A stretch of DNA of 64,000 bases from contig CAWFCG010000001.1 of assembly GCA_963814315.1 (NCBI GenBank), positions 586,903 to 650,902 of the forward strand, in the 5' to 3' direction. The position numbers were made by a program, and so were the translations under genes. A model generated the notes under the pieces. The model did not search any database. It was not told the origin of the DNA and saw only the letters and a list, made by a program, of their open reading frames with translations. Below are positions 1,054 through 41,676 of the stretch, piece by piece. Numbering within the stretch: position 1 is the first letter of the stretch; each line of letters begins with the position of its first letter. This DNA comes from an uncultured Chloroflexia bacterium (lineage in GTDB: Bacteria; Chloroflexota; Limnocylindria; Limnocylindrales; CSP1-4).

Positions 1054-1130
1054 CAAGCCAACCTCCAACACTGCCACGAGACCGTGGAGGCGTGCACGAT
1101 AGCGGCAACCTCGATCGGACACAAGGCCCA
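1054..1130 (-). promoter_or_regulatory. conserved 5' leader of the secreted-repeat gene (duplicated at 17762-17838). It contains the SD GGAGG and an upstream CCUCCA that could pair with it, plus a small CCACGG-UCUC-CGUGG hairpin
   Basis: About 75-90 nt of near-identity between the two loci upstream of and into the start codon. Complementary CCTCCA / TGGAGG segments flank an internal hairpin. Confidence 0.35.
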
Positions 1131-1447
1131 TACCAAGCTGCGCGAACATCAGCCCCGCGTGGTCTTCGGTCACTACCACGTCGAGGTCTTGGCAGACCCC
1201 ATCATCGCCCTCGATGACGTGGAGATCCCGGGCGGGCAGGAGGTTCGCTTGACGGTCGCATCAACGAAACCCTCGTGGTCCACCGGGGTATCGGTGGCCG
1301 GGGACCCGGTGGCCGCGACCCGACGTACCCAGTTCCGGCGGTCAGGTGGCCGACCCACGGCGACGGAGGTATACCCGGGGGTATGCCCGGCGATATCCCC
1401 GCGCACGAGGGCCGGGTCCGCAGTGGGACAGGCGCCCGGTCGACAGG

Positions 1448-7674: not shown

Positions 7675-7995
7675 ATCATCATGACGCTCGAGCGGGGCCG
7701 AAACGCATAGTCGCGGTCGAATCCTGGCTAGGCCCATAGGGCGACATAGGGCAGAGTCACCACCTCCCACTTCCGTTCGTCATCCCGAGCATCCGCATGC
7801 CCCCGCGCTTGACGCCCACCTGACCGGCACGTAGACCGAGAGGCTGCACGGACATCCAGGTGGCGGTGACCGCGCGATGTCCAGACGTGGCCGATGTCGA
7901 CGATCGAGACCACGTCTGGATGGCCGCCACTCCGCCAGGGATGCAGAGGCCCGGCGTCCCTCGGCCTGATGATCGCGGGACCCGTTCGCGTGACG

Positions 7996-8811
7996 CTACT
8001 TGGTCGAGGCGTTCTCCGGGGGCGGTGGCAACTCGCCATCGATGATGAAGCCGTGCAGCGTGTAGGGCTCGACTTCGAGGAGCACCGCGACGAGTCCTTC
8101 GTAGTCACCCTCCCCGTCGAGGACCCACGTCCCGCCGCTGCTATCGCCGTACCGAGGAGACTCGATGAACGGGCGAGGCCGCATGCGCCATCCGCCGCCG
8201 TCGTTCTCGATGCTGATGGCGAGTGTGCCGACCGTCACGCCGCTATCGAGGTACTCGTCCTGGGACGCCGACCAGGTGACCGTGCCATTGAGCCGCTCGT
8301 CGCTGAAGGACCAATGAGGATTGCAATACCCGCCTCGGCTCTGTGTGACGTCACCGACGGCCTCGGTCGTCGGTTCGCCGGGGCACGGTCCCGCTGACGA
8401 GGTCGCGGTGACCTCCACCGGCGGTGCTGGCGCTGGATCCATCGCGGCCCCTGGCACGCTGCCCTGCTGACCGAAGGGCTGGGCGATGAGGAAGGCACCC
8501 CCGATGGCGAAGACGATGGAACCTGCGGTGATGGCCTTGATCGGACTGAACATGGACTGAGTCCTCCCTGTAACGGTGGGGGTGTGGCCGTTCGTGGCCG
8601 GGATAGGACTGGGCTGGGCGTTCGAGGTCTGGTCCGTGGTCGGAGGCTGATGGTCATGCCGGAAGGTGGGGAGTGGCCACCAGCGACCTCGCTGGCGGGT
8701 CTGCTCCACTCGGGCAGACACGAGACCCGTGCTGCGATGAACGTCCTCCGGCCCGACATCCGTTCGCTTCAGCCACGCCCGCACCACTGGAGACAACTGC
8801 TTGTTGGTCAC
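7996..8811 (-). CDS. membrane anti-sigma factor D (cytoplasmic ~85 aa, one TM helix, extracytoplasmic domain)
   Basis: ATGA overlap with the upstream ECF sigma gene at 8808-8811. TM segment ITAGSIVFAIGGAFLIAQPF. Confidence 0.6.
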   Translation of the reverse strand: MTNKQLSPVVRAWLKRTDVGPEDVHRSTGLVSARVEQTRQRGRWWPLPTFRHDHQPPTTDQTSNAQPSPIPATNGHTPTVTGRTQSMFSPIKAITAGSIVFAIGGAFLIAQPFGQQGSVPGAAMDPAPAPPVEVTATSSAGPCPGEPTTEAVGDVTQSRGGYCNPHWSFSDERLNGTVTWSASQDEYLDSGVTVGTLAISIENDGGGWRMRPRPFIESPRYGDSSGGTWVLDGEGDYEGLVAVLLEVEPYTLHGFIIDGELPPPPENASTK

Positions 8812-25832: not shown

Positions 25833-26852
25833 CTATGACGGAGCGGGCGCTGGTTTGGCCCTGGGTGGGCCGATATCGCCCTTCTCGACGCGGATGTTGC
25901 GCCGCTCCAGGCGACCGAGGATGCGCATGCGTTGAGCGTCGATGAAGACAGCGAAGAAGATGACCGAGGCCGCAACCATGTCCTGTAGGTAGAGGTCGAC
26001 CTGGAGATAGACCAGGCCGGTGGAGATCATCTGCACCAGCAGCACGCCGATGACGGTGCCGGGGAAGACGTTGCCGATGCCGCCGAAGAGGCTGGTGCCG
26101 CCCAGCACGGCCGCGGCGATGGCACGGAACTCCACGCCCTCGCCGATCCCGGCGCTGATGCTGCCCTGCTGACTGATGGCGATGACGCCAGCCAGCGACG
26201 CGCAGAAGCCGCTGATGACGTAGACCGACCCGGTCAGGCGGACGACGTTGAGACCGGCCTTCTTGGCGGCATCGATGTCGTTGCCCATGGCGTAGATCTG
26301 CCGCCCCGGCGCGGTGTAGCGCAGGAACAGGACCGCTGCGACAACGACGATGGCGAGCACGAACACTGGAAGCGGAATCCCGAAGACGTCAGTGGCCGCA
26401 TAGGCCATCACCGGGGGCAGGATGAACTGTCGCGATTCGGTCAGCAGCAAACCGATGCCACGACCGACCGTCAGTGTTGCCAGCGTGGCCACGAATGGCA
26501 CCAGTCCGACCTTGGCGATGAGGAAGGCGTTCACGAAGCCCCAGCTGGTACCGGCCACGATGCCGGCCAGGATGGCCACGAGGTAGTTGACGTCCTGTTG
26601 CAGGAGCGTGCCCACGACGGCGGCGGTGATGTACATGGTGGCGCCGACCGAGAGGTCGATGCCGCCAGTCAGAAGCACGGCGGTCATGCCCACCGCCAGC
26701 AGGCCTACGAAGGCTGACGTCTCCACGATATTGGAGAAGTTGTCGAGGCTGAAGAAGCGCTCGTCAAGCACGCTGAAGAGCACGAACACCAGCACGAACA
26801 GGATGGCTGGCATGTTGCGCAGAACGGGCATGGTCAGTCGATTGCTGGTCAT
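25833..26852 (-). CDS. sugar ABC transporter permease (RbsC/AraH-type)
   Basis: 339 aa, roughly 10 TM segments, branched-chain/ribose-type permease signature. ATGA overlap with the ATPase gene. Confidence 0.85.
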   Translation of the reverse strand: MTSNRLTMPVLRNMPAILFVLVFVLFSVLDERFFSLDNFSNIVETSAFVGLLAVGMTAVLLTGGIDLSVGATMYITAAVVGTLLQQDVNYLVAILAGIVAGTSWGFVNAFLIAKVGLVPFVATLATLTVGRGIGLLLTESRQFILPPVMAYAATDVFGIPLPVFVLAIVVVAAVLFLRYTAPGRQIYAMGNDIDAAKKAGLNVVRLTGSVYVISGFCASLAGVIAISQQGSISAGIGEGVEFRAIAAAVLGGTSLFGGIGNVFPGTVIGVLLVQMISTGLVYLQVDLYLQDMVAASVIFFAVFIDAQRMRILGRLERRNIRVEKGDIGPPRAKPAPAPS

Positions 26853-28360
26853 GCTGCGTGCTCCCTGAAGGCCGTTCGGATGATCGCCTCGCGGTCGAAG
26901 TCGGCTCGCTCGAAGGACCCCAGCACCTCACCCTGGCCCATGACGATGATGCGATCGCACATGCCCGTCAGCTCCTCGATCTCCGACGAGATGAAGAGCA
27001 CCGCGGTGCCTCGTGCTGCGATCTGGTCGATGATCTCGTAGATCTCGAACTTGGCACCCACATCCACGCCGCGGGTGGGCTCATCGATGATGAGGATGGA
27101 TGGCTCGGTCATGAGCCACTTGCCCAGCACCACCTTCTGCTGGTTGCCACCAGACAGGCCCTTGGCTTCGTTGCGGAAGGCGTCATTCACCTTGATGCTC
27201 AGCATGTCGACTGTCTCGCGCACCGACTTGGCCAAGGGGTTGGAGCGAACCCGCTTGAGCCAGCGCGTGGTGTACTCGGGCAGCGCCGCCAGACTGAGGT
27301 TGTCCGAGACGGTGGCCTCCATCATCAGGCCCTCTTCGCGCCGGTTCTCGGTCACGAAGGCCATGCCGCCCTTGATGTTGCTGGTCGGGTTGAGTGATTT
27401 GGCGACCTTGCCATCGATGAGGATCTCGCCCTCGTCGAAGTCCTCCAGGCCGAAGATGATCTCAGCCAGTTCGGAGCGACCCGAACCCATCAGGCCGAAG
27501 ACGCCCAGCACCTCACCCTTGTGCAACCCGAAGTCGATCTGGTGGCTGATGCCGGCCTTGGAGAGGTTGCGCACCTCGAGCATGAGGTCCTCGGTCGGTG
27601 CAGCCGTGCGTGCCGGAAAGAGGTTCTCGATGTCGCGCCCGACCATCGAGCTGATCATGCGATCGATGGTGAACTCATCGCGTGGTCCGGTGATGACCAG
27701 GTTGCCGTCTCTCAGCACGGCGATGGCATCGGAGAGTCGCATCACGTCGCCGAGGATGTGGCTGATGTAGAGGATCGTCTTGCCGTCATCGTGGAGACGG
27801 CCGATCAACCCGAAGAGCCGTTCGGTCTCGCGCGCCGTCAACGAGGTGGTGGGCTCGTCGAAGATGATGATGCCCGCGTCCGTCGAGAGTGCCTTGGCCA
27901 CCTCCACCAACTGGCGCTCACCGGGCGCTAGACGCTCGACGGCCATGTCGGGTGAGACTTCCAGGTCGACGAGTGCCAGGTACTCCTTCGCCCGGCGGTT
28001 GAGGTCGCGCCGGTTGAGGAGGGGCAGCTTGCCCGCGGTGGGGAAGTCGCTGATGAAGAAGTTCTCAGCGATGCTGAGGTTGGTGAAGAGGTTCAGCTCC
28101 TGGTGGATGAAGGCGATACCGGCGGCGTCAGCATCGGCCGGGTCGTCCGGGCGGTAGGGCTTGCCGTCGAGGAGCATCTGGCCGGACGTCGGCGGCACCA
28201 CGCCACCAAGGATGTTCATCAGGGTGGACTTGCCGGCGCCGTTCTCGCCGACCAAGCCGACGGTGCTGCCGCGTTCCACATCGAGGTCGATGCCCTTGAG
28301 CACCGGCACGCCGAAGAAGGCCTTCTCGATGCCCTGGAATTGCAGGATCAGGTCACTCAT
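26849..28360 (-). CDS. sugar ABC transporter ATP-binding protein with duplicated NBDs (RbsA/XylG-type)
   Basis: Start MSDLILQFQGIEKAF at 28358-28360 with GAGGA upstream. Two Walker A motifs (GENGAGKST, GLMGSGRS) and two LSGG signatures. The ORF-track N-terminal extension is Arg/His-rich junk. Confidence 0.9.
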   Translation of the reverse strand: MSDLILQFQGIEKAFFGVPVLKGIDLDVERGSTVGLVGENGAGKSTLMNILGGVVPPTSGQMLLDGKPYRPDDPADADAAGIAFIHQELNLFTNLSIAENFFISDFPTAGKLPLLNRRDLNRRAKEYLALVDLEVSPDMAVERLAPGERQLVEVAKALSTDAGIIIFDEPTTSLTARETERLFGLIGRLHDDGKTILYISHILGDVMRLSDAIAVLRDGNLVITGPRDEFTIDRMISSMVGRDIENLFPARTAAPTEDLMLEVRNLSKAGISHQIDFGLHKGEVLGVFGLMGSGRSELAEIIFGLEDFDEGEILIDGKVAKSLNPTSNIKGGMAFVTENRREEGLMMEATVSDNLSLAALPEYTTRWLKRVRSNPLAKSVRETVDMLSIKVNDAFRNEAKGLSGGNQQKVVLGKWLMTEPSILIIDEPTRGVDVGAKFEIYEIIDQIAARGTAVLFISSEIEELTGMCDRIIVMGQGEVLGSFERADFDREAIIRTAFREHAA

Positions 28361-28371
28361 GGCCAAGGTCC

Positions 28372-29463
<1,092 letters not shown>

Positions 29464-29600
29464 GTCGCCCGTTCCGTGCGGTTGCCGTGGTGGAGGTTCA
29501 TCGCTTCCCGGTTGATGAAGAGGATGGGGCGGACCGCCAGACGGCGGCCCGCGGCTCGGAAGAGGCGGCTCAGCGCCGCCCCTTCCGGAGTGCTAGATGG

Positions 29601-30650
29601 CTATTCGAGGACAGGCTCCTGGTCGGCGAGCAGGATGCAGCCCCACATGTCCATGGCACGGTCAGCGAAGTTGCCGGCCGTGAGGGCGAACCCGGGGTCA
29701 TCCAGCCACTGGTCGGGCTGGGTGTCGCCGGACTCGATGGCCGCGAGGAGCGCGTTCATCATGAGCTCGGCCTCGAGGTACAGGTCCTGTACGCCCGTCG
29801 AGTCGACGAAGCCGTCGCGGATCTGGCGGCAGGCGTTGACGTCGCCGTCGAGGCCGGCCATCAGGACGTGGTTGGGATCATCACGGGTGACCCACTTGCC
29901 CATCGGCTCGAGGATGCCCTTGATGGTCGGGAACAGGAAGTCCGATGAGGTGAACAGGAAGTCGATCTCGGGGTTGGCTGCCACAGCCGCCTGCAGGTTG
30001 GCCTGCGCGGTCGCGGCGTCCCACTTGGTGGGAACCTCGATGACCTCATTGAACAGGTCGGGGTTGGCGTTGATGACGTCGTAGAAGCCCTCATAGCGGC
30101 CGACCGCGTTGGGGTCACCAAGGTCGCCGACCATGATGAGTGGCGTCACCTTCTCCTTGCCCATCTCCATCGCCACGTCGGCGATGTACTGGGTCGCGTC
30201 GCGGGCGATGGTGCGGTTGTCCGCCTGGACGACGATGGCGGCGCCATCTTCGCTCTGCGGCGGGCGGTTGAAGATACCGATGGGGATGTCAGCCGCGTTG
30301 GCTTCTTCGATCAGCGTCAGTGCGATCGAGCCATCCTTGGGGATCACGAAGATGCCGTCGACTTCCTGCGCGATGCAGTCCTTCAGCAGCTCAAGCTGCT
30401 CGTTGGCGTCGGGGCCGTAGCGCTCCAGGACGTTGTGCCCCGCGGCTCGCAGCGTCTCGGTCATGGCCTTGTGGCCAGCCAGCCAGAACTCGGTCTCGAG
30501 ATCCTCGTGGATGAAGCAGATGTCGAATCCGCTACTGGCGGCCATGGACTCGTCCGGGGCGGTGCTTTCGTCCTGCGCCAGGGCCGGCATCGCGGACAGC
30601 GCGAGTGCGCCGGCCATGGTGAGCCCGATGATTCCCTTGAGATTCCGCAT
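29601..30650 (-). CDS. periplasmic monosaccharide-binding protein (RbsB/Peripla_BP_4-type)
   Basis: GGAGG sits 11 nt upstream of ATG 30648-30650. Signal peptide MRNLKGIIGLTMAGALALSAMPALAQ. Periplasmic-binding-protein fold motifs. Confidence 0.8.
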   Translation of the reverse strand: MRNLKGIIGLTMAGALALSAMPALAQDESTAPDESMAASSGFDICFIHEDLETEFWLAGHKAMTETLRAAGHNVLERYGPDANEQLELLKDCIAQEVDGIFVIPKDGSIALTLIEEANAADIPIGIFNRPPQSEDGAAIVVQADNRTIARDATQYIADVAMEMGKEKVTPLIMVGDLGDPNAVGRYEGFYDVINANPDLFNEVIEVPTKWDAATAQANLQAAVAANPEIDFLFTSSDFLFPTIKGILEPMGKWVTRDDPNHVLMAGLDGDVNACRQIRDGFVDSTGVQDLYLEAELMMNALLAAIESGDTQPDQWLDDPGFALTAGNFADRAMDMWGCILLADQEPVLE

Positions 30651-30729
30651 GAGTATTGACTCCTCCAAGATCTGTTCCCTAGATGGGCTTCTGACTCTCC
30701 GTTTGGCCTGCTAGCACCTCCTACGCTGG

Positions 30730-32142
30730 TCACGCATGTCGGAAGACCTCCCAGTCGAGGTAGTTCTCGAGCGCCTCGGCCACGGCGTCCCCGGTATGCG
30801 CGGGGCTCATGGCGCAGTGATGCTCGAATCCGACCTTGCAGATGAGCTTGAGAAGCGGCTGGAAGTTGGGGATCTCTACGACGGCACGGGACCCAAAAGT
30901 ATCCAGCGGGTCGTCGAGGAACTGCCCCTCAGCCACGTAGGCCTTGCACTTGCCATTGACGTCGTCCGTGCTGATGCGGGCGATGGTCAGCGGCGCAGCC
31001 GGTGCGCGTCCGTTGATGGCGCCGAAGACGTTGTCGTTACCAAGGGTGGTGCCGAGCACGTCCGCGATCTGCATCTCGGCCTCGCCTTGGGGATAGAAGT
31101 TGAGCGGCCAGTTGCCGCAATGGAAGAGCACGCACTTGTCTGGGTCGTCGCCATAGTTGTTGTTGAGATCGACGATGGCCGCGGGCTGCTCGGCGGCCAG
31201 CTGCAGTGCGTACATGGAGGCCAGACCGGTGATGTCGGTCTCGCACGCGCTGGGCATGAGCTTGTTGCTCATGATGCTCATCAGCGTGCAGACGTTGACG
31301 CCGTAGTTCTCCTGGAGCGAGGACCAGCACTGCATGGCCGTGGCATCAAGGTCGTTGTCAGCCATCCAGTCGTCGACGACCACGCCCAGCTTGGCCATCT
31401 TTACCAGCTTCTCCGGGGGCACCGTGGGATGTGGCATGTAGGCACGGATCTCATCGAGCTTGGCCTTCGTCTTGGCATCGTCGTCGCCCAGGCGGTTGGC
31501 GTTGCCGAAGACCTCGCTGAAGTCGATGACGCTGACGGCGATGCCGCTGGCTTCCAGCAGCTTCTCGCTGTACCGCACGGTCTTGAAGGCATCCGGACGC
31601 GTGCCGATGGCGCCCAGGCGAGCGCGCTTCATGCCGTTGGCGACCTTGCACACGCGGATGAACTTGTCGAGGTCAGCGCGGAAGGCGTCCGACTGCACGG
31701 GCGTGGTGTGATTCTCGGTCAGCGAGTACTTGAAGCCGTACTGGCGCAGGTCGCTGGAGACGGAGATCTTGCCGCAGAACGCGTCGCGGCGGCGGTCCAC
31801 GGTGAAGGCGGTGACGTCGTCGGGATAGGCCTGCAGCAGGATGGGCACGTTGAGGCCGGACAGCCGCATGGTGTCCGCAACGCCCTTCTCATCGCCGAAG
31901 TTGGGGAGCACCACCAGCACACCCTCGATGCGCCTACGGTTGTCGTCGAACAGCTGGGCACACAGCTGCGCCTCACGCCAGGTCTCGACGCCGCCAAGCT
32001 TGGTGGCTGCGGCATCGAGGATGACGGGCTCAAGGTCCATCTCCTCGAATAGGGCGAGCACGTCCGCTCGCGCTTCGGTGACCAGGGCGTCAGGGAAGAA
32101 GTCGCGGTTCCCGACGATGACTCCCAATGTGGCTCGTGCCAT
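30730..32142 (-). CDS. L-fucose isomerase / L-arabinose isomerase family aldose-ketose isomerase
   Basis: MARATLGVIVGNRDFFPD N-terminus and the FucI-like C-terminal domain. About 470 aa from the ATG at 32142. Confidence 0.7.
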   Translation of the reverse strand: MARATLGVIVGNRDFFPDALVTEARADVLALFEEMDLEPVILDAAATKLGGVETWREAQLCAQLFDDNRRRIEGVLVVLPNFGDEKGVADTMRLSGLNVPILLQAYPDDVTAFTVDRRRDAFCGKISVSSDLRQYGFKYSLTENHTTPVQSDAFRADLDKFIRVCKVANGMKRARLGAIGTRPDAFKTVRYSEKLLEASGIAVSVIDFSEVFGNANRLGDDDAKTKAKLDEIRAYMPHPTVPPEKLVKMAKLGVVVDDWMADNDLDATAMQCWSSLQENYGVNVCTLMSIMSNKLMPSACETDITGLASMYALQLAAEQPAAIVDLNNNYGDDPDKCVLFHCGNWPLNFYPQGEAEMQIADVLGTTLGNDNVFGAINGRAPAAPLTIARISTDDVNGKCKAYVAEGQFLDDPLDTFGSRAVVEIPNFQPLLKLICKVGFEHHCAMSPAHTGDAVAEALENYLDWEVFRHA

Positions 32143-32183
32143 TGTCCTCTCCTCCTTGGACCTCATGGTCCGTGTGGTCCGTG

Positions 32184-33530
32184 TTACTCGGTAGCTAGGT
32201 GGTCGACGGCCGTGAGCAGCTCGGCATCGGCGATCGCTCCCTGCGACCACTGGTCCTGTAGCTGCCGCAGCCTGTAGACCGTGGATGGCTTGATCTCGAC
32301 GTCCGCGGCAGTGATGGGCGTGTCCATGGCCACGGGTCGGACGACGCGGGCGCCGTTGGCCAGGCCGATGGGCAGGAGGCCCTCGGCAGCGGCGGTCTCA
32401 TAGGTGTCGATGAGGCTGTAGTAGGCGGTGCCGCCGATGGCATCGAGCGTGTCGTCGGGTGCCAGGTCGCGCTTGGCAACGGCGAAGACCTCGGAGGTAA
32501 GCCGATCGAGCGGGACCATGTTCGACTGGCGCCGGATGGTCAGCATGGCGCACGTCAGCGGCACCTCGATGCTGCATAGGTGGAAGGGTCGGAAGAGCGT
32601 GTAGTAGGGCCCATCGCCCATATCGCGCAAGACCATCGCCTCACGCAGTCGAGGGTGGTCGGTACGCACGATGACGAAGACGCCGGGAGCGACCGCCCCG
32701 ATGCCATAGTCGACCACGCCCATCTGGCTCAGCACACCGCCGTCTTCGACGAGCCGGAAGGCGTCGGTCAGGTGGTCGCGGTCGGTGTCGGGGCCGTGCA
32801 TGCCGCGGATATCCGGGACCAGGCCGGTAGCGTTGGACGTTGCAGCCATCTCGATCATGGTCTTGGAGCCATCCACGAACTCGACCAGCATGTTGGGCGA
32901 GAGGCCACGGCGAGCGGCTTCCTTCTGGACGGCCGGGTCGGTCGGCGTGGAGTGGCGATCGAGCGGGTTGTTCTTGCCCTTGCCGGCGGCCACGATGGTG
33001 AAGCCCATCGAGACCGCGAGGTCGTACAGCTCCTTGCAGGCAGCTGGCTCGTCACCGGCAGCGAGTGCGTAGAGCACACCCTTCTGCTTGGCATACCAGT
33101 GCAAGATGGGGCCGACGGTGATGTCCGTCTCGACGTTCATCATGGCCAAGTCCTGACCATTGCGAGCGCTGCGTAGCGCGGCGCGAGCGCCGATCTCAGG
33201 CACGCCGGTGGATTCCAGCATCACGTCGATGCTGCGCATGTCAGTGACGATGCGGTAGTCGGCGACGGCGACCACCTTCCCGGCCTCGACCGCTGCATCG
33301 GCTGCGGCGGCCGTCTCGGCCACCACGACCTCGTCCTCGATGAGACCGATGCGATAGGCATCACGAGCGCGCTCGATATCCAGGTCGGCGGTGACGACCA
33401 CGCGCACACCTTGCATCTCGTGCGTGGTGGCGACCACGTCGGTACCCATCTGCCCGGCCCCGATGAGACCGATGCGGACGGGCTGCCCGGCAGCTTCCCG
33501 CTGTCGCAGCTCAGTGTTGAGTCCGATCAT
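32184..33530 (-). CDS. NAD(P)-binding SAF-domain oxidoreductase (homoserine-dehydrogenase-like fold, COG4091-type), paralog 1
   Basis: IGLIGAGQMG Rossmann motif and a C-terminal SAF-like region. Paralogous to 37393-38676 (MMNVETDIT..., VSNATGL...). Confidence 0.6.
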   Translation of the reverse strand: MIGLNTELRQREAAGQPVRIGLIGAGQMGTDVVATTHEMQGVRVVVTADLDIERARDAYRIGLIEDEVVVAETAAAADAAVEAGKVVAVADYRIVTDMRSIDVMLESTGVPEIGARAALRSARNGQDLAMMNVETDITVGPILHWYAKQKGVLYALAAGDEPAACKELYDLAVSMGFTIVAAGKGKNNPLDRHSTPTDPAVQKEAARRGLSPNMLVEFVDGSKTMIEMAATSNATGLVPDIRGMHGPDTDRDHLTDAFRLVEDGGVLSQMGVVDYGIGAVAPGVFVIVRTDHPRLREAMVLRDMGDGPYYTLFRPFHLCSIEVPLTCAMLTIRRQSNMVPLDRLTSEVFAVAKRDLAPDDTLDAIGGTAYYSLIDTYETAAAEGLLPIGLANGARVVRPVAMDTPITAADVEIKPSTVYRLRQLQDQWSQGAIADAELLTAVDHLATE

Positions 33531-34588
33531 GCCGGATCCGTGCCTTCCTGGCCGATCTCGACCATGACCTTGAGCGCCTCGCCGGCGGCGACGGTCCGGA
33601 AGACCTCATCGGCCTGATCGAGGGAGAAGCGGTGGGTGATGATGGCATCGGGATCGACTTGGCCACGTTCGAGCAGTCTTAGCGCGCGGGCATGGAAGTC
33701 GGGGTGATAGCTGAAGGAGCCGATGACGCGGATCTCGTCGTAGTGGATGCGATTGGCGTCCAGCGTCGTCATGGGCGCCGCCTTGGGCAGGCCGCCGAAG
33801 AGGACCACGTTGCCGCGCTTGCGTACCGCCTCGACCGCCTGCTGGTGGGTGGCGGCCACGGGGTTGGCACAGATGGCGCTGTCGGCTCCGAGGCCGTCCG
33901 TGAAGGCCTTGACCTCAGCCACGACGTCCTGGGTCATGGGATCGAGCACCAGCTCGGGCGCAAACGGCTCGGCCAGCTTCCGCCGCAGTTCGTTGGGTTC
34001 GGACAGGATCACGCGGGCGCCGCGCAGGTGGGCGATGAGGGTGTGCAGACAGCCGATCGGGCCGGCGCCCATGACCAGCACGGTGTCACCCAGGGTGGTG
34101 CCGATGTCCTCGTGACAGGCCTGCACCGAACTCAGCGGCTCGCCCAGGGCGCCCTGCGCAAAGCTGAGCGACGAGGGCATCTTGTGGATGGTGCCGCCGG
34201 CCAGGGCGTGTGCCGTCAGGACGCAGTACTCGGCCAACCCGCCGTCGAAGCCGGGCGTGATGCCGATCATGGTCATGTCGTCGCAGAGGTTGTATTGGCC
34301 CACGCTGCAGTACCAGCATTCGAGGCAGTGGACGTCCGGCGCGACGGCGAGGTGCTCCCCCACCGTGTAGCCAGACACGTCGGAGCCGACCTCGACGATC
34401 TCGCCGGCGAACTCGTGTCCGGGCACGGTGATGGGGCCGGCAGCCGGACCTTCACGCCAGCGCCGCAAGTCGGACCCGCAGACCCCACAGGCCCGGACGG
34501 CGAGGAGGACGCCGTCGTTGGGGCACTGTGGGACGGGAACGTCGACCAGCTCGATCGTCTCGGGGGCGGTGAGGTGGGCGGCTTTCAC
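33527..34588 (-). CDS. zinc-dependent alcohol/polyol dehydrogenase (MDR; sorbitol / L-threonine-DH-like)
   Basis: GVCGSDLRRW, GHEFAGEIVEVG, VMGAGPIGCL motifs. Confidence 0.8.
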   Translation of the reverse strand: MKAAHLTAPETIELVDVPVPQCPNDGVLLAVRACGVCGSDLRRWREGPAAGPITVPGHEFAGEIVEVGSDVSGYTVGEHLAVAPDVHCLECWYCSVGQYNLCDDMTMIGITPGFDGGLAEYCVLTAHALAGGTIHKMPSSLSFAQGALGEPLSSVQACHEDIGTTLGDTVLVMGAGPIGCLHTLIAHLRGARVILSEPNELRRKLAEPFAPELVLDPMTQDVVAEVKAFTDGLGADSAICANPVAATHQQAVEAVRKRGNVVLFGGLPKAAPMTTLDANRIHYDEIRVIGSFSYHPDFHARALRLLERGQVDPDAIITHRFSLDQADEVFRTVAAGEALKVMVEIGQEGTDPA

Positions 34589-35226
34589 TGGCTGTCGATC
34601 TCCCTGATCTTGTGACCGACGGCACCACCCGGATGGGTCTCCCCGAAATCGGTGACGGAGTAGCCGCGCAGCTCAAGAAGCGCCACACAGATGGCATCGG
34701 TGAAGGCCGAGATGAAGAGCGAGCTGCCCGTGGCCACCATGCCGAAAGGGTCGATGCCGTCCGGCGCGGTCACCGGCAGGATGACGTCGGCCAGCCGACC
34801 CAGGCTCGACGCGGGCTTCTCGGTGATGGCGACGACCACCGCTCCTCGCTTGCGGGCGATGCCAGCGAGGAAGACGACCTCGGTGGTCTCGCCGCCTTTG
34901 GATAGACCGATCCAGACGTCGTTGGCGGTCACGGCGCCGGCCGCCCCGTGCTGGCTGTCGCCAGGGTGCAGGAAGAGCGCCGGCGTCCCTACGCACGACA
35001 GCAGATGGGCGAAGCGCAGCGCCACTGCGTGCGAGGTGCCGGAACCCGACACGAGGACGTGGCCGTGGCAGTCCAGCAGCATGCGAACGGCCTGGGCGAA
35101 CGTGTCCGGCAAGTCGTTGGCCAGCGTCGCGGCGGCAGCGCTTTCACGGCGGATGGCCTCGGCCCCGAGCGCACGGAGCTGCTGATCGTCCATCAGCCGC
35201 TGATCGTCCAGCCGCTGCTCATCCAT
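34585..35226 (-). CDS. SIS-domain (phosphosugar isomerase / binding) protein
   Basis: VLVSGSGTSHAVA...GLSKGGETTEV matches the SIS domain. Confidence 0.7.
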   Translation of the reverse strand: MDEQRLDDQRLMDDQQLRALGAEAIRRESAAAATLANDLPDTFAQAVRMLLDCHGHVLVSGSGTSHAVALRFAHLLSCVGTPALFLHPGDSQHGAAGAVTANDVWIGLSKGGETTEVVFLAGIARKRGAVVVAITEKPASSLGRLADVILPVTAPDGIDPFGMVATGSSLFISAFTDAICVALLELRGYSVTDFGETHPGGAVGHKIREIDSQ

Positions 35227-36193
35227 CGGACGCCTCCAGGAGTGTCTCAGCCGTCACCGAGTCGGTGATGAGCACATTGATGAGGTGTCCGCGAAGCGCG
35301 GCGCGGATGGCGGCCTGCTTGTCCGGCCCGCCTGACACGCCCACGATCTTGGGCACCTGCTTGATCTGCTCCAGTGTCATGCCGATGATGCGGTCGTTGA
35401 TCTCCGACTCGATGCACTCGCCCTCGGCGTCGTAGTAGCGCAGGGCGATGTCGCCGACCGCCCCCTTGTGCAGCAGGGCATCCAGCTCGGCACGCGTGAT
35501 GATGGAGCCGTCGCGCATCGTCACCGAGCCCAGCGTGGGGGCACCGATGCCGACGAAGGCGATGTCCAGATCGTCGAACGCTTCCACGGCTCGTTGGACG
35601 TGGACGTCGGAGAGCAGCACCTCACGGGTACGCTGATCGGCCACGATGCCGGGCACCGGCAGCAGCGTCAGGCGACAGCCCAGCGATCGCGAGACGCTGC
35701 GGCACAGTTCCGTGGCGTGGACTTCCGAATCGGGCTGGCCAAGGCCACCGATCACCTGTACCACCTGGGCATTGGGGTAGCGCTGCGAGGTCAGTGCCGC
35801 GGCCATGTAGCGCAGCGTGTCACCCCAACACATGCCGATGGTGCTGCGGGGAGACATGGCGCGCAGTAGGTAGCCCGCGGCGGCGCTGCCGACGGCTCGG
35901 CTGACCTGCGCCTGTGTGTCCCCTGACTGCGCTTCGACCACGAGGGCCTCCTGCAGCCCGAAGCGCTCCTCAAGCGCGCTCTCGAGGTCGAGGAAGAGAT
36001 CCTCCGGCGCGACCACGTTGATCTGCACCACACCCGTCTCGCGCGCCTGTGCCATCAGCCGGGACACCTTCGAACGAGACAGCCCCAAGCGTGCCGTGAT
36101 GGCATCCTGGTTCAGGCCGTCCTCGTAGTAGAACCTGCTGACCTTTACCAGCAAGCGAAGCTCCTCGTTCGAAGGGTGGCTGGCTATCGCCAT
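35219..36193 (-). CDS. SorC/DeoR-family transcriptional regulator with C-terminal sugar-phosphate-binding domain
   Basis: N-terminal HTH (YYEDGLNQDAITARLGLSRSKVSRLM) and a SorC C-terminal domain. The start could alternatively be 36229. Confidence 0.8.
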   Translation of the reverse strand: MAIASHPSNEELRLLVKVSRFYYEDGLNQDAITARLGLSRSKVSRLMAQARETGVVQINVVAPEDLFLDLESALEERFGLQEALVVEAQSGDTQAQVSRAVGSAAAGYLLRAMSPRSTIGMCWGDTLRYMAAALTSQRYPNAQVVQVIGGLGQPDSEVHATELCRSVSRSLGCRLTLLPVPGIVADQRTREVLLSDVHVQRAVEAFDDLDIAFVGIGAPTLGSVTMRDGSIITRAELDALLHKGAVGDIALRYYDAEGECIESEINDRIIGMTLEQIKQVPKIVGVSGGPDKQAAIRAALRGHLINVLITDSVTAETLLEASDG

Positions 36194-36194
36194 G

Positions 36195-36226
36195 AAAGAA
36201 TTCCCACTCCTGAGAATTATTTCAGG
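36195..36226. promoter_or_regulatory. candidate SorC operator at the regulator's own start: AGAATTC half-site plus the imperfect palindrome CCTGAGAATTATTTCAGG
   Basis: Seen directly in the sequence. Shares the TGAGAAT / GAGAATTC words with the site at 40269-40302. Confidence 0.45.
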
Positions 36227-36860
36227 CACCGTAGCATGGTCACCAGGCGGTCGTCAACCATAAGGGGCAATCGAATGCATCGGTCCGCTGCACAGCGCGA
36301 CCCGCCGGGCGGGTGATCCGACAGTCGTTCGCCATCCATCTGGGCCTGGCCGGCAGTCCTATCCACATGGCGGGTGAAACAGCGATGATCCAACGCCATC
36401 CGCGCGCTCGCTACGTTCGTTCACCCGCCCCGCGGGGCGATCGACCGAATCTGGGTGCCTGAAGGCGACCTGCTCCGTCACTTCACCCGTCCGGTGGGTC
36501 AGACCGACCACCGCAGCCATAGCGTCAAGGGCTCAGTCGCGACACCCTCAGCGTGGATGCGTGGGCGCGACATCCCTTGGGCGCGATGACGCGATTGGCA
36601 TGGATGAAGCAGTCACGCCACAGCTGGTGGTTCCCGTGCATCGGGAGAGCCTGACCCGTGATGCCATCAGAAGGCCACCTATTCCCGCACGGCGGGAGAA
36701 GACGGCAGCGGTTGACGTTCTGCGGGAAACATCGGCAGGTTCGAGGTCCCACCGGTCGTGTTGGCCCGCTGAACGGGAACCTCGGGACGTCGCGGGACCA
36801 TGGCGCATCGCTGCGCCAGTGCCACGGCTTGCCACTCGGGCGGTCGACTCGTTGGGGGCG

Positions 36861-37382
36861 CTACTCCTCGGGCGGGTAGACCTTCTCCGGCGGATTGCGG
36901 CGCGCGGGACGGCAGATCAGCTCGTAGGTGACGCCGTACGCTTCCTGTGTATCGAGATAGGCGTAGTGGCCGTCGCCATCGGGACCGAAACCGGAGCCGT
37001 CCATGATCATGCGGAAACCGGCAGCCTCAGCCTGCGCCAGGGCCACATCCATATCGTCCACTAGCACGCCAAGATGCTGCACGCCGAACCCATGCGCCGC
37101 GACGAAGTCAGCGTAGACCGTCGGCCCCTCGACCATCTCGATGAGCTCGACGCGCATCGGCCCGAAGTAAGACAGCGCCACCCGCATCTTGTACTCGCAG
37201 GGCTGACCGTAGTAAGACATCTTCTTCACCAGCGGCTTGCCATAGGTGTAGAAGTGCCAAGGCCCCACGCCGAACATCTGGTGGTACATCTCCACGGTGC
37301 GGTCGAGATCCTGCACTACGAAGGCGATCTGGGCGATGCCGTTGTCAAGGAACGGCAGCCTCTGCGGGTGTTGCTCGCTCAT
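36861..37382 (-). CDS. VOC-family (glyoxalase / dioxygenase-fold) protein
   Basis: Start MSEQHPQRL at 37380-37382 with AAGGGGG upstream. Glyoxalase-fold repeats. Confidence 0.65.
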   Translation of the reverse strand: MSEQHPQRLPFLDNGIAQIAFVVQDLDRTVEMYHQMFGVGPWHFYTYGKPLVKKMSYYGQPCEYKMRVALSYFGPMRVELIEMVEGPTVYADFVAAHGFGVQHLGVLVDDMDVALAQAEAAGFRMIMDGSGFGPDGDGHYAYLDTQEAYGVTYELICRPARRNPPEKVYPPEE

Positions 37383-37392
37383 CCCGACCCCC

Positions 37393-38676
37393 TTATCCAT
37401 AGAGGGCGTCCTGCAGCCGGCGCAGCCGTGCCACGAACGTCGTCTCATCGACGGCCACATCGTCCTCGGTGATGATCGAGCCGGCAGTGATGGCCCGCTT
37501 GGCGACCGCTCCCGCACCGATGCCGATGGGCACCGCTCGCATCGCGCGAGCCTCTGCGTATGTCATGATCAACCCGTACCAATCAGGCCCGCCGATACCC
37601 TCCAGCACGGCCCCACCCTCGATAGCGCGCTTGGCCGTGCACACCACCTCGGCGTGCATCTGTTCGGCAGCCACGGTGACCTCGCCCAGCAGCACCGCCT
37701 CCGCCACCGACTGTGGCGTCTCCAGATCGCAGAGATGGTACGGCCGCAGGTGCAGGTAGTAGGGCCCTTCAGCGTGGGTGATGAACTTCATCTCCTTGCG
37801 GATGCGGGCATCGTACGAGCGCACGATGGCGAACACGCCTGGCGCGATGGCTCCGGTCGAGTAGTCCACGCAACCGGCGCGTGACAGGATGCCGCCGTCA
37901 GCCTGCGGGATGAACGTGCTGACCAGGTCATCGACCTCCACCTTGGGACCATGCATGCCGGGAACATCGGGCAGCAGGCCCGTGGCGTTGGACACCGCCG
38001 CCATCTCCACCATCGTCTTGGTGCCATCCTTGAAGGCCGAGAGCATCTTGGGGTTCATGCCCTTGCTGGCAGCCTCTGCCACGCAGGCATCGGGCGTGGC
38101 GGCAAGATCGATGACGTTGTTCTTGCCCTTGCCCAGGCTGACCACCTCGAAGCCCATCAGGATGGCCTGCTCGTGAAGCATCTTGAGCACACCCGGCTCA
38201 TCGCCCGACGCCACGGTGTAGACCGTACCCATCTTTCGAGCCAGCCGGTCCAGGTAGACCCCGATGGTGATGTCCGTCTCCACGTTCATCATCACCACGG
38301 GCTTCCGGTTCATGATGGCGTCGTGGGCTACGCGCGCACCCACATCGGGCACCCCGGTAACCTCCACGATGCACTCCAGGCCCTCCATCTGCGGCATCGA
38401 CAGCGCATCGGGCGTGACTACCGCGGCCCCGGTCCGGATGCCGTCCTCCGCCTCGGCGAGACCTTCGGCCACCAGCACATCACCCGAGCGGCCCATCTCA
38501 CCGTAGGTAGCGACACCACGGGCGACGTCCAGATCGGCGATGGCCGCGACACGCATGCCCTCGATGTTGTTGATGGCATGGGCTAGGCCGGATCCCATCT
38601 GCCCGCAGCCGACGATGCCGATGCGGATAGGGTCGTTCGCGGCGACCCGCTGCCTGAGCTTGCTGACCAGCTCCAT
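37393..38676 (-). CDS. NAD(P)-binding SAF-domain oxidoreductase, paralog 2
   Basis: IGIVGCGQMG. Collinear with 32184-33530. Confidence 0.6.
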   Translation of the reverse strand: MELVSKLRQRVAANDPIRIGIVGCGQMGSGLAHAINNIEGMRVAAIADLDVARGVATYGEMGRSGDVLVAEGLAEAEDGIRTGAAVVTPDALSMPQMEGLECIVEVTGVPDVGARVAHDAIMNRKPVVMMNVETDITIGVYLDRLARKMGTVYTVASGDEPGVLKMLHEQAILMGFEVVSLGKGKNNVIDLAATPDACVAEAASKGMNPKMLSAFKDGTKTMVEMAAVSNATGLLPDVPGMHGPKVEVDDLVSTFIPQADGGILSRAGCVDYSTGAIAPGVFAIVRSYDARIRKEMKFITHAEGPYYLHLRPYHLCDLETPQSVAEAVLLGEVTVAAEQMHAEVVCTAKRAIEGGAVLEGIGGPDWYGLIMTYAEARAMRAVPIGIGAGAVAKRAITAGSIITEDDVAVDETTFVARLRRLQDALYG

Positions 38677-38697
38677 GTGTGGCTCCTGTCTGTCGCG

Positions 38698-40248
38698 CTA
38701 CTGCGACCGGATACGGGCGAGCTCGACGAAGTCTCCGCGAAGGTCCTGATAGACCTGCTTGAAGAGCGCGAACCGTTCCATGTAGTCGGCATGGGCCGCA
38801 GGGTCGGGCTCCATGGGATCGATGGTGGTGGCCCAACCCCTGGCCACGGAGAAGTCCTTGAAGATGCCGGTAGCGACGCCGGCCAGGATGGCATCGCCGT
38901 AGGGCGCTCCTGTGCGTCGTTCCAGCAACACGGTACCGACGTCGAAGACATCGGTGATGATGCGCCGCCACAAGTTCGACTTGGCGCCACCCTCGTTGAG
39001 CACCAGCGGGTAGTTGACGCGGAGTCCCGCCGCACCGAGCGTCTCGAATGAGTGATACAGGGCGAAGGCGACCCCTTCCATGGCCGCGCGCACGACATGC
39101 CCCTTGGTGTGGTTGAGCGAGAGGCCGAAGAGCACGCCGCGAGCGTTGACGTCCCAGATGGGCGTGCGCTCGCCCATCAGGTAGGGCAGGAAGAACAGGC
39201 TGTCCGCACCTCTTGGCACAGCGGCTGCTTGTGCATTGAGCTCGTCGTAAACGTCCGGCCCACCGGCCTTCTCGCGCTCGACCTCCAGGGCTGAGAACTG
39301 GTCGCGTAGGTAGCGCAGGGTCCCGCCGCCAGTGGTCGTGGTCGGCACCGTGATGTATGTCGTCTCCGAATCCACGGTGTAGGGGAAGTTGATCGACGCG
39401 GCGCCCGATTCGCTGAACAGGAACTCGCGCGAGCGGTGGATGATGCCGAAGTTGCCGGCCGTGCCCAGGTTCATCTGGATGTCACCGGGCTCGATTGCAC
39501 CGCCCTGCATCCAACCAGCATTGCAGTCCACCTGGCCACCGGCTACCGGCGTGCCCGCAGCCAGCCCACACTCGGCCGCAGCCGCCGAGGAGATCTCACC
39601 GATGATGTCCTCGCAGCGACACAGTTCGGGCATCAGCGCCGGATCCACGCCCATGGCCTCGAGCAGGGCGGTATCGAAGCGCCGTTCCAGGATGTCGTAG
39701 GCGCCATAGAACGGGCCGGCCGAATAGTGCGCCGTCGATGTCCCCGTCAGCTTGAAGTTGATGAAGCCGTCGATGGTCAGGACCTTGGCGATGGTGCGGT
39801 AGCGCTCGGGATGGTTGGTGCGCTCCCAGAGCACGTTCATCAGTACGGGGTGGTCTTCGAGCCGGTTGGCGGTGATGCCGAAGATGCGCTCCGCGCCGAT
39901 GTGCTCGCTGACCCAGGTCACCTCAGCCGTGGCGCGGCGATCCATCAGGTTGTAGGCCCGAGGGAGCGGCTCACCGTCACGATTGACTAGGACGACCGAG
40001 GGGAGCGCGGAGGAGGCGGCCACGCCCCGGATCTCGGCCGGGTCCACGCCGGTCTCGGCGAGGACCTTGCGGGTCATGCGGCAGAAGGCGTCCCAATAGC
40101 GGGGCGCGTCATGTTCCGACCATCCGGGATGGTCGGTGTAGATGGGGTATTCCTCATAGGCATAGCCGACCTGCTCCCCGTCGGAGTCGATGAGCACGAC
40201 CTTTGCCCCGCCAGTGCCATAGTCGGCACCCAGGAGGTAGTCAGTCAA
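38698..40248 (-). CDS. FGGY-family sugar kinase (second)
   Basis: [24 protein letters not shown] and FGGY N/C domains. 516 aa. Confidence 0.85.
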
Positions 40249-40268
40249 GGTTCGTTTCCGTCGCCATG

Positions 40269-40302
40269 TGTGAGAATTCTCTCGCTTCTGAGAATATTCT
40301 CA
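40269..40302. promoter_or_regulatory. candidate SorC operator upstream of the FGGY kinase operon: two perfect palindromes, GAGAATTCTC and TGAGAATATTCTCA
   Basis: tgTGAGAATTCTCtcgcttcTGAGAATATTCTCA lies 20-50 nt upstream of the start codon at 40248. Confidence 0.5.
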
Positions 40303-40356
40303 ATTCAACCTAGCAGGCTGCGACTCGCGAGTCAAATCCTGATCAGCCGCTTGGGG

Positions 40357-41676
40357 TCAGGCGATCTCACCCGGGGGCGCGGTGGCGGCCTCGGCCAAAC
40401 GGCCGGCCGGCAGCAGCTCGCGGTCGGCCGAGTCCTCCCAGACCGCATCCGACCAACGATAGGCCACGAAGGCCACGCTGCAGACGAGCAGGCCCGCCAA
40501 CGCGAAGGGCGTGACGGAGCCGTCGTATGCCGCGTCGATCAAGGCACCGATGATGGCACCGCCGAGCGTTGCGATGGCCCCGATGATCGCCGCCGCCGTG
40601 CCCGCGACACGACCCATCGGCATCATCGCGGCAGAGTTCAGGTTGGGCATCACGAATGAGTGCGTCACCAGGATGGGCAGCACCCCGACCAGGTACAGCC
40701 AGAACGGCGGATGCCCGCCGGTAGACAGCGCGATGACCACGAAGACCGTGGTCGCGGCAAGGTAGCCAGTCAGTGCGAAGCGCACCATCCGTCGCAGCCC
40801 GAAGCGGTCGATCAGCCTGGGATTGAAGAGCATCGCGGCACCCAGCATCAGCGACGCCCCACCGAAGACAAGAGGAAACCACGGCCCCAGGCCGAAGACG
40901 TCGTCGATGATCAGCTCGGTGGAGGCGAGGTACGAAGCGAAGAACCCGAAGACCGCCATCTGCGCGATGGTGAAGCCCATGGCGAAGCGGCTGCCGAGCA
41001 CCACGCGCGCGGCCGTCCACAGCCGGGAAGCTCTGAGGGGAAGGCGTCGTTCGGCGGGGAGCGTCTCCGGCAAGCGCCTGGCCCAGAGACCTGCGGCCAG
41101 CGCGGCGACCACGAAGAACGCGAAGATCCAGCGCCAGTCACCGATGGCGAGCACGGCCGCGCCCAACGATGGTGCCATCATCGGCACCAGCAGGAACACG
41201 GCCATGATGTACGAGAGCACCTTGGCCATCTGGTCACCGCGGTAGCGATCACGAATCGTGCCCTGGGTCATGATGCGGATGGCCGCGGCACCAAGACCAC
41301 CCACGAAACGCAGCAGCAGCAGGATGGTCAGCGACGGCGCCAGCGCCGCCCCCAGTGCCGCCAACGAATAGATGACGAGGCCCACCCAGAGGATGCGCTT
41401 GCGACCGAGCGCGTCGGACAACGGACCCCAGAGCAGTTGTCCCGAACCGAAACCCACCAGGAACACGGTGATGACCGGGGCGATGGCCGTCGAATCCGGC
41501 GCCAGGCCAAAGCTCGATCGCATCTCCGCGAAGGCCGGCAGCATCATGTCGATGGCCAGGGCCGTCAGAGCCATGAGCATGGAGATGAGCACGATGAATT
41601 CGCGCTTGCCCATCGGGTCGACCGACTCGTCGGCCACCGGCTTGTGGGCAGGGTGCCCGTGGCGGAGAGCGGTCAT
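40357..41676 (-). CDS. MFS transporter (Bcr/CflA drug:H+ antiporter-like)
   Basis: 12-TM profile. GRKRILWVGLVIYSLAALGAALAP MFS motif. Confidence 0.8.
   Translation of the reverse strand: MTALRHGHPAHKPVADESVDPMGKREFIVLISMLMALTALAIDMMLPAFAEMRSSFGLAPDSTAIAPVITVFLVGFGSGQLLWGPLSDALGRKRILWVGLVIYSLAALGAALAPSLTILLLLRFVGGLGAAAIRIMTQGTIRDRYRGDQMAKVLSYIMAVFLLVPMMAPSLGAAVLAIGDWRWIFAFFVVAALAAGLWARRLPETLPAERRLPLRASRLWTAARVVLGSRFAMGFTIAQMAVFGFFASYLASTELIIDDVFGLGPWFPLVFGGASLMLGAAMLFNPRLIDRFGLRRMVRFALTGYLAATTVFVVIALSTGGHPPFWLYLVGVLPILVTHSFVMPNLNSAAMMPMGRVAGTAAAIIGAIATLGGAIIGALIDAAYDGSVTPFALAGLLVCSVAFVAYRWSDAVWEDSADRELLPAGRLAEAATAPPGEIA

Follow-up and report, generated by a model that had tools for sequence, protein, structure and literature searches.

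The DNA analyzed here is a 64,000-nucleotide stretch from an uncultured Chloroflexia bacterium, hereafter referred to as the window, with a G+C content of 66.4% rather than the 70% that an earlier note on the sequence had ascribed to the genome. Of interest in it are two operons arranged in tandem on the minus strand, the second of which begins with sorC, the gene for a regulator of the SorC type. Each operon is headed by one promoter and one pair of 14-bp pseudo-palindromic sites, and these pairs, the candidate operators of the regulator, form the subject of the analysis. The palindromes had previously been described as bracketing the operons, a description that gives way to that of a single site pair at the head of each. 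The relevant features are as follows, with the scores of the sites in bits taken from the weight matrix described below.

36861-40248, minus strand: operon 1 (FGGY kinase-DRL-VOC), assigned with Pfam; synteny kept in ~25 loci
40330-40335, minus strand: -35 hexamer of the FGGY promoter, TTGACT; orthologous loci keep TTGAC(T/G) at a distance of 17-18 bp from the -10 element
40307-40315, minus strand: extended -10 element of the FGGY promoter, TGcTAGGTT; TGnTAnnnT is found in all orthologous FGGY promoters
40289-40302, no strand assigned: FGGY site 1, TGAGAATATTCTCA, a perfect 14-bp palindrome; 29.9 bits; 4 nt past the -10 element and over the predicted transcription start
40271-40284, minus strand: FGGY site 2, CGAGAGAATTCTCA in gene orientation; 16.1 bits; 18 bp downstream of site 1
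35219-36193, minus strand: sorC, 324 amino acids, first gene of operon 2; Pfam Sugar-bind PF04198 plus an N-terminal helix-turn-helix (HTH)
36252-36257, minus strand: -35 hexamer of the sorC promoter, TTGACG; conserved in orthologues
36228-36236, minus strand: extended -10 element of the sorC promoter, TGcTACGGT; conserved in orthologues
36211-36224, minus strand: sorC site 1, TGAAATAATTCTCA in gene orientation; 21.2 bits; 3 nt past the -10 element
36193-36206, minus strand: sorC site 2, TGGGAATTCTTTCA; 14.5 bits; 18 bp downstream of site 1
26849-35226, minus strand: remainder of operon 2, SIS isomerase through ABC transporter, assigned with Pfam; conserved synteny

As can be seen, the two sites at each promoter share the consensus TGrGA-N4-TCyCA and are separated by a 4-nt linker, with a center-to-center distance of 18 bp. 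Written in gene orientation, the region upstream of the FGGY kinase gene reads TTGACT-17 bp-(TGc)TAGGTT-gaat-TGAGAATATTCTCA-gaag-CGAGAGAATTCTCA-cac-ATG, and that upstream of sorC reads TTGACG-18 bp-(TGc)TACGGT-gcc-TGAAATAATTCTCA-ggag-TGGGAATTCTTTCA. All of the strings quoted in the earlier note are present where it placed them. The perfect palindromes GAGAATTCTC (40272-40281) and TGAGAATATTCTCA (40289-40302) lie 23-54 nt upstream of the FGGY TTG start codon at position 40248, and AGAATTC and CCTGAGAATTATTTCAGG are located within 36197-36226. The presence of two sites at each spot likewise holds, but the register of a 10-mer plus a 14-mer is replaced by that of two 14-mers. Indeed, alignment of the orthologues indicates that a 14-mer register aligned at the right end, with an 18-bp period, fits both promoters. 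The GAGAATTCTC 10-mer, when taken as the unit, is not enriched in the window, with 6 matches (two mismatches or fewer) versus 15.6 expected.

From the same alignment, the start codon of sorC is the ATG at 36193, and not the mechanically listed GTG at 36229. The latter was rejected because the codons upstream of 36193 are not conserved as protein and coincide with the conserved promoter. Since sorC starts at 36193, its two sites are located in the promoter and leader. The final A of site 2 is the A of the ATG, and overlap with the start codon is limited to this one base; to that extent only does the former description of the pair as overlapping the start of the regulator gene apply.

The distribution of the motif within the window is distinctly uneven. 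The word TGAGAAT occurs four times, an ordinary count (3.26 expected), yet all four copies fall inside the two 35-bp stretches. For TGAGAATATTCTCA with three mismatches or fewer, there are three matches versus 0.44 expected, and none of 100 shuffled sequences reaches three. A symmetric weight matrix was trained on the orthologous sites, and expectations were derived from random sequence of the same first-order composition. At a threshold of at least 12 bits, the matrix finds four matches in the window (36193, 36211, 40271, and 40289), whereas 0.16 are expected. The sole other match above 8 bits scores 9.7 bits at position 28054, inside the ABC ATPase gene, and is within chance expectation. The interior of operon 2 (26849-35226) contains no further site of at least 12 bits and no matching promoter. 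Given that they have neither a site nor a promoter of their own, the ABC transporter genes are presumably co-transcribed with sorC.

The promoters conform to the consensus TTGAC(T/G)-N17/18-TGnTAnnnT, which is of the sigma-70 type with an extended -10 element, and the sites begin 3-4 nt after it. The stringent pattern TTGAC-N15-17-TGNTANNNT has two matches in the 64 kb, namely these two promoters, versus 0.01 expected. With the transcription start assumed to lie ~7 nt past the -10 element, each site pair spans ~-3 to +30. A generic promoter scanner missed both of these promoters because TAGGTT and TACGGT score only 3/6. Its own calls (TTGAGA-16-GAGAAT and GTGACC-16-AATAAT), which fall inside the operators, were set aside in favor of the phylogenetically conserved promoter upstream.

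In light of those calls, the AT-rich words could be viewed as core promoter hexamers of the -10/-35 type, with no repressor involved. The hexamers chosen by the scanner do lie within the sites, and GAGAAT and AATAAT are similar to -10 hexamers. Directly upstream, however, at both loci and in all orthologues, there is a promoter with an extended -10 element that is far better conserved. Moreover, promoters as such do not account for dyad symmetry, the duplication of a 14-mer, or a period fixed at 18 bp, and the best conserved positions of the 14-mer are not the scanner hexamers but rather G2 and C13, which are nearly invariant among the orthologous sites. The chance that the words are core promoter hexamers is so slight as to be nearly negligible.

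Species-representative genomes were scanned with the regulator protein, which yielded 30 syntenic loci and two distant homologues. The 30 loci derive from Chloroflexota metagenome-assembled genomes (MAGs) labelled Ca. Limnocylindrales or 'Chloroflexia', with regulator identities of 70-97% and a conserved gene order. The arrangement of -10 element, 14-mer, 4 nt, and 14-mer is observed in every one of 54 promoter instances from these loci. The +18 offset of the second site is conserved in all 30 loci, and it is present at every orthologous FGGY promoter. Site 2 was for the most part outside the training set of the matrix and was still recovered at exactly +18. FGGY site 1 is identical or has one to three mismatches in 23 orthologous promoters, and sorC site 1 in most orthologues is a perfect TGAGAATATTCTCA. 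The footprint of conservation comprises the -35 element, the extended -10 element, and both 14-mers; the promoter spacer, the linker, and the downstream leader drift. In terms of mean information at the orthologous promoters, the sites contain 1.42-1.52 bits per column, the linker 0.5-0.9, and the next 20 nt downstream 0.30-0.45. Absence of the motif from orthologous loci had been named beforehand as one of the results that would speak against a role as operators; instead, it is kept in ~30 of them.

The regulator itself is readily placed. Its effector domain, residues 68-320, matches Pfam PF04198 (Sugar-bind) with E = 1.9e-70 and 237 bits versus a cut-off of 27. Over its full length, HTH included, it matches Bacillus subtilis DeoR (8r7y, E = 2.5e-42) and Klebsiella SorC (2w48, E = 2.2e-41). 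Both alignments begin at residue 9, and the isolated DNA-binding domain of DeoR (7bhy) matches residues 6-60. LsrR (4l5i) gives E = 1e-36, and CggR matches the effector domain only (E = 3e-16). In DeoR, Arg 34 and Arg 39 contact the bases (PMC11229326), and both arginines of the 'LSRSKVSRL' segment of the regulator align with them. All 30 orthologues share one and the same recognition helix, LSRSKVSRLMAQAR. According to a 2024 structural study of DeoR and CggR (PMC11229326), two half-operators are bound by a tetramer in the SorC family, with one dimer of DNA-binding domains on each. The attributes of the family (DeoR/SorC HTH subclass) are thus found together here: the effector domain, the HTH with its arginines, two half-operators, and an operator adjoining a promoter. 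The protein falls below the NCBIfam equivalog cut-offs for DeoR (NF053881, 232 versus 420 bits) and LsrR (NF011947, 161 versus 486 bits), and hence it is not an orthologue of either.

Where the regulator differs, the operator differs as well. In L031, an Anaerolineales homologue with 46% identity and the recognition helix SRQKIQRLLKTAR, the pair TGAGCATATGCCCA-taaa-TAGTCATATGCTCA (624-677) follows directly after an extended -10 element and precedes its own regulator gene, again with an 18-bp period. A third, weaker copy overlaps the -10 element. The 18-bp layout therefore extends beyond the Limnocylindrales. In L023, the kinase operon (3251-3283; 7827-8735) contains an additional dehydrogenase and its own SorC paralogue, with 37% identity and the helix SRVKVTRLLRQAV. 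At the promoter of this operon, TGAACACTTGTTCA and TGAACGTATGTGCG, with a period of 19 bp, replace the TGAGA sites, and the orthologous sorC promoter of the same locus still carries a pair of the TGAGA type. Regulator and motif are linked by these two homologues, whose recognition helices differ and whose promoters bear another 14-mer in a similar layout. The TGAACA word of L023 is also the half-site of B. subtilis DeoR.

The motif appears to be confined to the two promoters. A matrix scan of 563 kb of syntenic loci gave no match of at least 12 bits outside of them. When metagenome contigs were scanned with the exact pattern, 66 matches were obtained. Ten G+C-rich contigs represent orthologues of the same two promoters, and one of these contigs carries both. 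Most of the other matches, located in AT-rich contigs or in coding sequence, were rejected as members of the regulon and attributed to chance; several look like reverse-strand readings of HRDLKPENIL, a Ser/Thr kinase motif. Every match in a G+C-rich contig that is accompanied by the conserved promoter is one of the two orthologous promoters, with one exception. In that contig (L082, G+C 0.63), the sequence TTGACT-N17-TGcTAGGTT-gcg-CGAGAGAAATCTCA-acag-TGAGAATATTCTCA at 665-723 on the plus strand precedes genes for a CUT1-type sugar-binding protein and a permease (807-2108, plus strand), and thus a different sugar ABC transporter. No homologue of either protein is present in the window or the 32 loci. 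A third transcription unit is therefore under the same module in at least one relative.

The promoter-adjacent site pairs are almost certainly conserved functional cis-elements, and the adjacent SorC-type protein is, as judged from sequence data, probably the repressor that binds to them. The assignment of the palindromes in the earlier note as operators of this regulator, autoregulation included, is supported at the level of prediction by the conserved footprint, the exclusivity of the motif, the two-site layout, the recognition helix, and the covariation. In the mechanism envisioned, the N-terminal HTH domains of the regulator, as a dimer, would bind to each 14-mer, and two such dimers would be joined into a tetramer via their sugar-binding domains. 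When inducer is absent, the tetramer, lying over the predicted transcription start, would block open-complex formation or promoter escape, and both the kinase operon and the regulator's own operon would be repressed. Being first in the operon that it would repress, sorC is expected to be negatively autoregulated, as is cggR. An intermediate of the pathway in phosphorylated form, for which the product of the FGGY kinase is the most plausible candidate, would bind to the effector domain and lower the cooperativity of DNA binding, such that both operons would be turned on. The Pfam-assigned genes of the regulon include those for the FGGY kinase and for a SIS sugar-phosphate isomerase. Induction by the phosphorylated product of an FGGY kinase has been demonstrated for LsrR with phospho-AI-2 and is ascribed also to SorC and EryD.

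Several considerations weigh against this interpretation. The identity of the binder, its oligomeric state, the inducer, and the transcription start are all deduced from sequence comparisons, the last of these from the promoter alone. The scans for sites covered the 64-kb window and the flanks of the loci (10-20 kb). The transcribed sites can fold together as a 14-bp RNA hairpin. In a distant clade, half of site 1 has changed with no accompanying change in the recognition helix. Finally, the characterized members of the family have longer periods than the 18 bp (~1.7 helical turns) observed at these promoters, and a tetramer geometry like that of DeoR is therefore not guaranteed here.

With respect to the hairpin, the selected feature could be the RNA, in that transcribed sites 1 and 2 would pair into a 5'-terminal stem-loop that stabilizes the mRNA or masks the ribosome-binding region. 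The hairpins predicted for the FGGY and sorC leaders have energies of -15.3 kcal/mol (z = -2.85) and -12.9 kcal/mol (z = -3.22), respectively, and the latter would include the start codon. At the FGGY promoters, cognate sites 1 and 2 pair at 11.39 of 14 positions versus 10.86 for non-cognate combinations, a weak excess that 10 of 5000 permutations reach, whereas at the sorC promoters there is none (10.48 versus 10.60). In the distant clade, the sorC promoter retains both sites and the 18-bp spacing with only 6-9 of 14 pairs, and among the variable positions within the sites, 11 break the pairing versus 0-1 that are compensated. What is conserved is the sequence, beyond its complementarity. In addition, no match to Rfam was obtained up to E = 1 for 36100-40420 on either strand. 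It should also be noted that similar palindromic operators are self-complementary by construction, and that the overall dyad of an operator bound by a tetramer would mimic covariation. Selection on the RNA in place of DNA binding is considered very improbable.

The distant clade (L016-L022) merits further comment. Half of site 1 is now TGCAC/GTGCA at both promoters, and both the layout and the spacing are retained. A change in the helix was considered as the cause of the GTGCA half-site and was rejected, given that the helix is identical; residues flanking it differ (AITARLG versus AIKDRLG), but they do not track the motif cleanly. A second element is, in addition, located upstream of sorC in the window:

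36267-36278, minus strand: extra element GCATTCGATTGC, a pseudo-palindrome 9 nt upstream of the sorC -35 hexamer

Its consensus, GnATyCGnwTGC, is found at the sorC promoters of the closer orthologues only, and not at the FGGY promoters, and in two loci (L003 and L006) it is a perfect GCATTCGAATGC. On its own, GCATTCGATTGC shows no significant enrichment in the window. A second regulator may act through this element at the sorC promoter.

Both of these features lend some weight to the alternative that the operators are real and the binder is another transcription factor encoded elsewhere, such as a global carbon regulator: a half-site has changed where the recognition helix has not, and another factor may act at the conserved element upstream of the -35 hexamer. 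The assignment of the SorC-type protein as the binder is, furthermore, a deduction. In every locus examined, however, the motif occurs only at promoters next to this regulator, and it differs where a paralogue or a distant homologue takes the place of the regulator. The bipartite layout is characteristic of SorC-family repressors. Among regulator genes, consistent synteny is observed for sorC alone, and genes of the LacI family do not regularly accompany the motif. The sites also do not resemble those of the LacI/CcpA type; the cre consensus has a central CG, and the center of the sites is AATATT or AATT. Binding by a factor other than the SorC-type protein is thus regarded as improbable.

As for the 18-bp spacing, there is a small chance that it reflects a DNA geometry unlike those of DeoR and CggR, in which the dimers would occupy different faces or the DNA would be strongly twisted or kinked, or else that the operator pair doubles as a 5' mRNA hairpin.

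Repression by the SorC-type protein can be compared with what is known for other members of the family. The best structural relative is B. subtilis DeoR (8r7y, 7bhy), which shares with the regulator the type of HTH, the equivalents of Arg 34 and Arg 39, and a bipartite operator. By our own reading of the sequence in PMC11229326, the DeoR dra-nupC-pdp operator in a 5-4-5 register is TGAACaaaaTTTCA plus TTTACatatGTTCA, the same 14-bp geometry. The half-sites are TGAGA/TCTCA here and TGAAC/GTTCA in DeoR, related by their TGA start. The spacing between half-operators is 18 bp here, as against ~22 bp for DeoR and ~20 bp for CggR when counted from the published sequences. Whereas the operator of DeoR extends from -60 to -21, that described here covers ~-3 to +30, over the predicted start. 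The regulator here is encoded by the first gene of a regulated operon, unlike deoR, which is a separate upstream gene, and the pathway and effector differ from those of DeoR.

In the arrangement of the repressor as the first gene of its own repressed operon, the locus is like B. subtilis CggR/gapA. CggR, as a cooperatively binding tetramer, occupies two similar units arranged in tandem past the transcription start, a cooperativity that is relieved by a sugar phosphate (PMC11229326, PMC2943609). It differs in having a winged-helix DNA-binding domain, repeats of the form CGGGAC-N6-TGTC, and an operator at +32 to +77. Klebsiella SorC, LsrR of Escherichia coli and Salmonella, and Brucella EryD resemble the present regulator in their two-domain architecture and in their control of sugar-type catabolic operons that include an FGGY kinase. 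None of the three is orthologous to it, and their operator sequences differ. We know of no description of the SorC, LsrR, or EryD operators as pairs of 14-mers with an 18-bp period. A literature search with the 12-mer GAGAATATTCTC did not turn up the motif and gave only unrelated oligonucleotides in two mammalian papers.

The arrangement is a clean example of ordinary SorC-family regulation and overturns no existing ideas. It is set apart from the characterized members by the half-site word, the invariant 18-bp spacing, the position over the predicted start, and a regulated pathway with two DRL oxidoreductases. The Ca. Limnocylindrales constitute an abundant class of soil and freshwater Chloroflexota that, to our knowledge, lacks a cultured model and for which hardly any transcriptional regulation is known. 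For this lineage, the analysis provides a testable prediction of the operator, promoter, and regulon of an uncharacterized SorC/DeoR-type repressor, as well as a promoter consensus, TTGAC-N17/18-TGnTAnnnT, that is useful for annotation. The 32-bp operator, with its 18-bp spacing, represents a compact natural case of the spacing tolerance of a SorC tetramer. The site pairs also mark a conserved, co-regulated sugar pathway that comprises the FGGY kinase, two DRL oxidoreductases, the FucI-like isomerase, the SIS isomerase, the zinc dehydrogenase, the VOC protein, and the ABC transporter. The individual genes, all assigned with Pfam, and the gaps between them are as follows.

40357-41676, minus strand: MFS transporter gene
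40249-40356: gap of 108 bp between the MFS and FGGY genes
38698-40248, minus strand: FGGY sugar kinase, TTG start
37393-38676, minus strand: DRL-family oxidoreductase
36861-37382, minus strand: VOC/glyoxalase-fold protein
36194-36860: gap of 667 bp without coding sequence between the VOC gene and sorC
34585-35226, minus strand: SIS sugar-phosphate isomerase
33527-34588, minus strand: zinc alcohol dehydrogenase
32184-33530, minus strand: DRL oxidoreductase with a SAF domain (DRL+SAF)
30730-32142, minus strand: FucI-like isomerase
26849-30668, minus strand: ABC sugar transporter (binding protein, permease, and ATPase)

The occurrence of two paralogous DRL (DXR-like) oxidoreductases in one sugar regulon (37393-38676 and 32184-33530), one of them with a SAF domain, is a further feature of the locus; neither protein is named by any NCBIfam model. 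Between the operons, the generic scanner for promoters and terminators found no intrinsic terminator. The spacer of ~580 bp from the VOC stop codon to the sorC promoter (36279-36860) corresponds to gaps of ~130 to 1250 bp in the orthologous loci. Approximately 200 bp of it can be aligned, to the two closest loci only, and there are hints of an internal repeat. It contains no credible open reading frame and has no Rfam match.

In the distant clade, the MFS gene upstream of the FGGY promoter gives way to a tRNA-Val gene or something else, and it follows that the module moves together with the kinase operon rather than with the upstream neighbor. The tRNA-Val(CAC) genes are positioned just upstream of the promoter at 5172-5248 in L020 and 5297-5373 in L022. 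In two other loci, L008 (9075-9407) and L012 (4723-5292), the kinase operon is reduced to fragments corresponding to FGGY residues 1-93 or 1-98 and, in L012, also to the C-terminus of the DRL protein. Both promoter-operator modules are kept in these loci, and an FGGY paralogue with 26% identity, located after the FucI-like gene, replaces the ABC binding protein. In seven MAGs (L003, L007, L016, L020, L021, L029, and L030), many orthologous genes are split into two or three neighboring tblastn segments that differ in frame. These look like assembly indel errors rather than pseudogenes, and consequently gene calls from these MAGs need care.

Two minor observations concern the leaders. In sorC site 2, the left half at the sorC promoters is almost always TGGGA and not TGAGA. 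This TGGGA lies 8 nt before the start codon in the window and in the three closest orthologues (L001-L003). It may be under dual constraint, with the GGGA, or the GGAG of the linker, doubling as a Shine-Dalgarno sequence. The second observation concerns a short upstream open reading frame in the FGGY leader:

40241-40267, minus strand: ATG start, 8 codons; begins 3 nt past FGGY site 2; its stop has an 8-nt overlap with the TTG start of the kinase gene

A reading frame of five to eight codons is found in the same place and frame in 15 of the 18 closer orthologous FGGY leaders, and the sequence of the encoded peptide is not conserved. The FGGY kinase gene has a weak start codon (TTG) and a weak Shine-Dalgarno sequence, and the arrangement suggests translational coupling of the short frame to the kinase gene.

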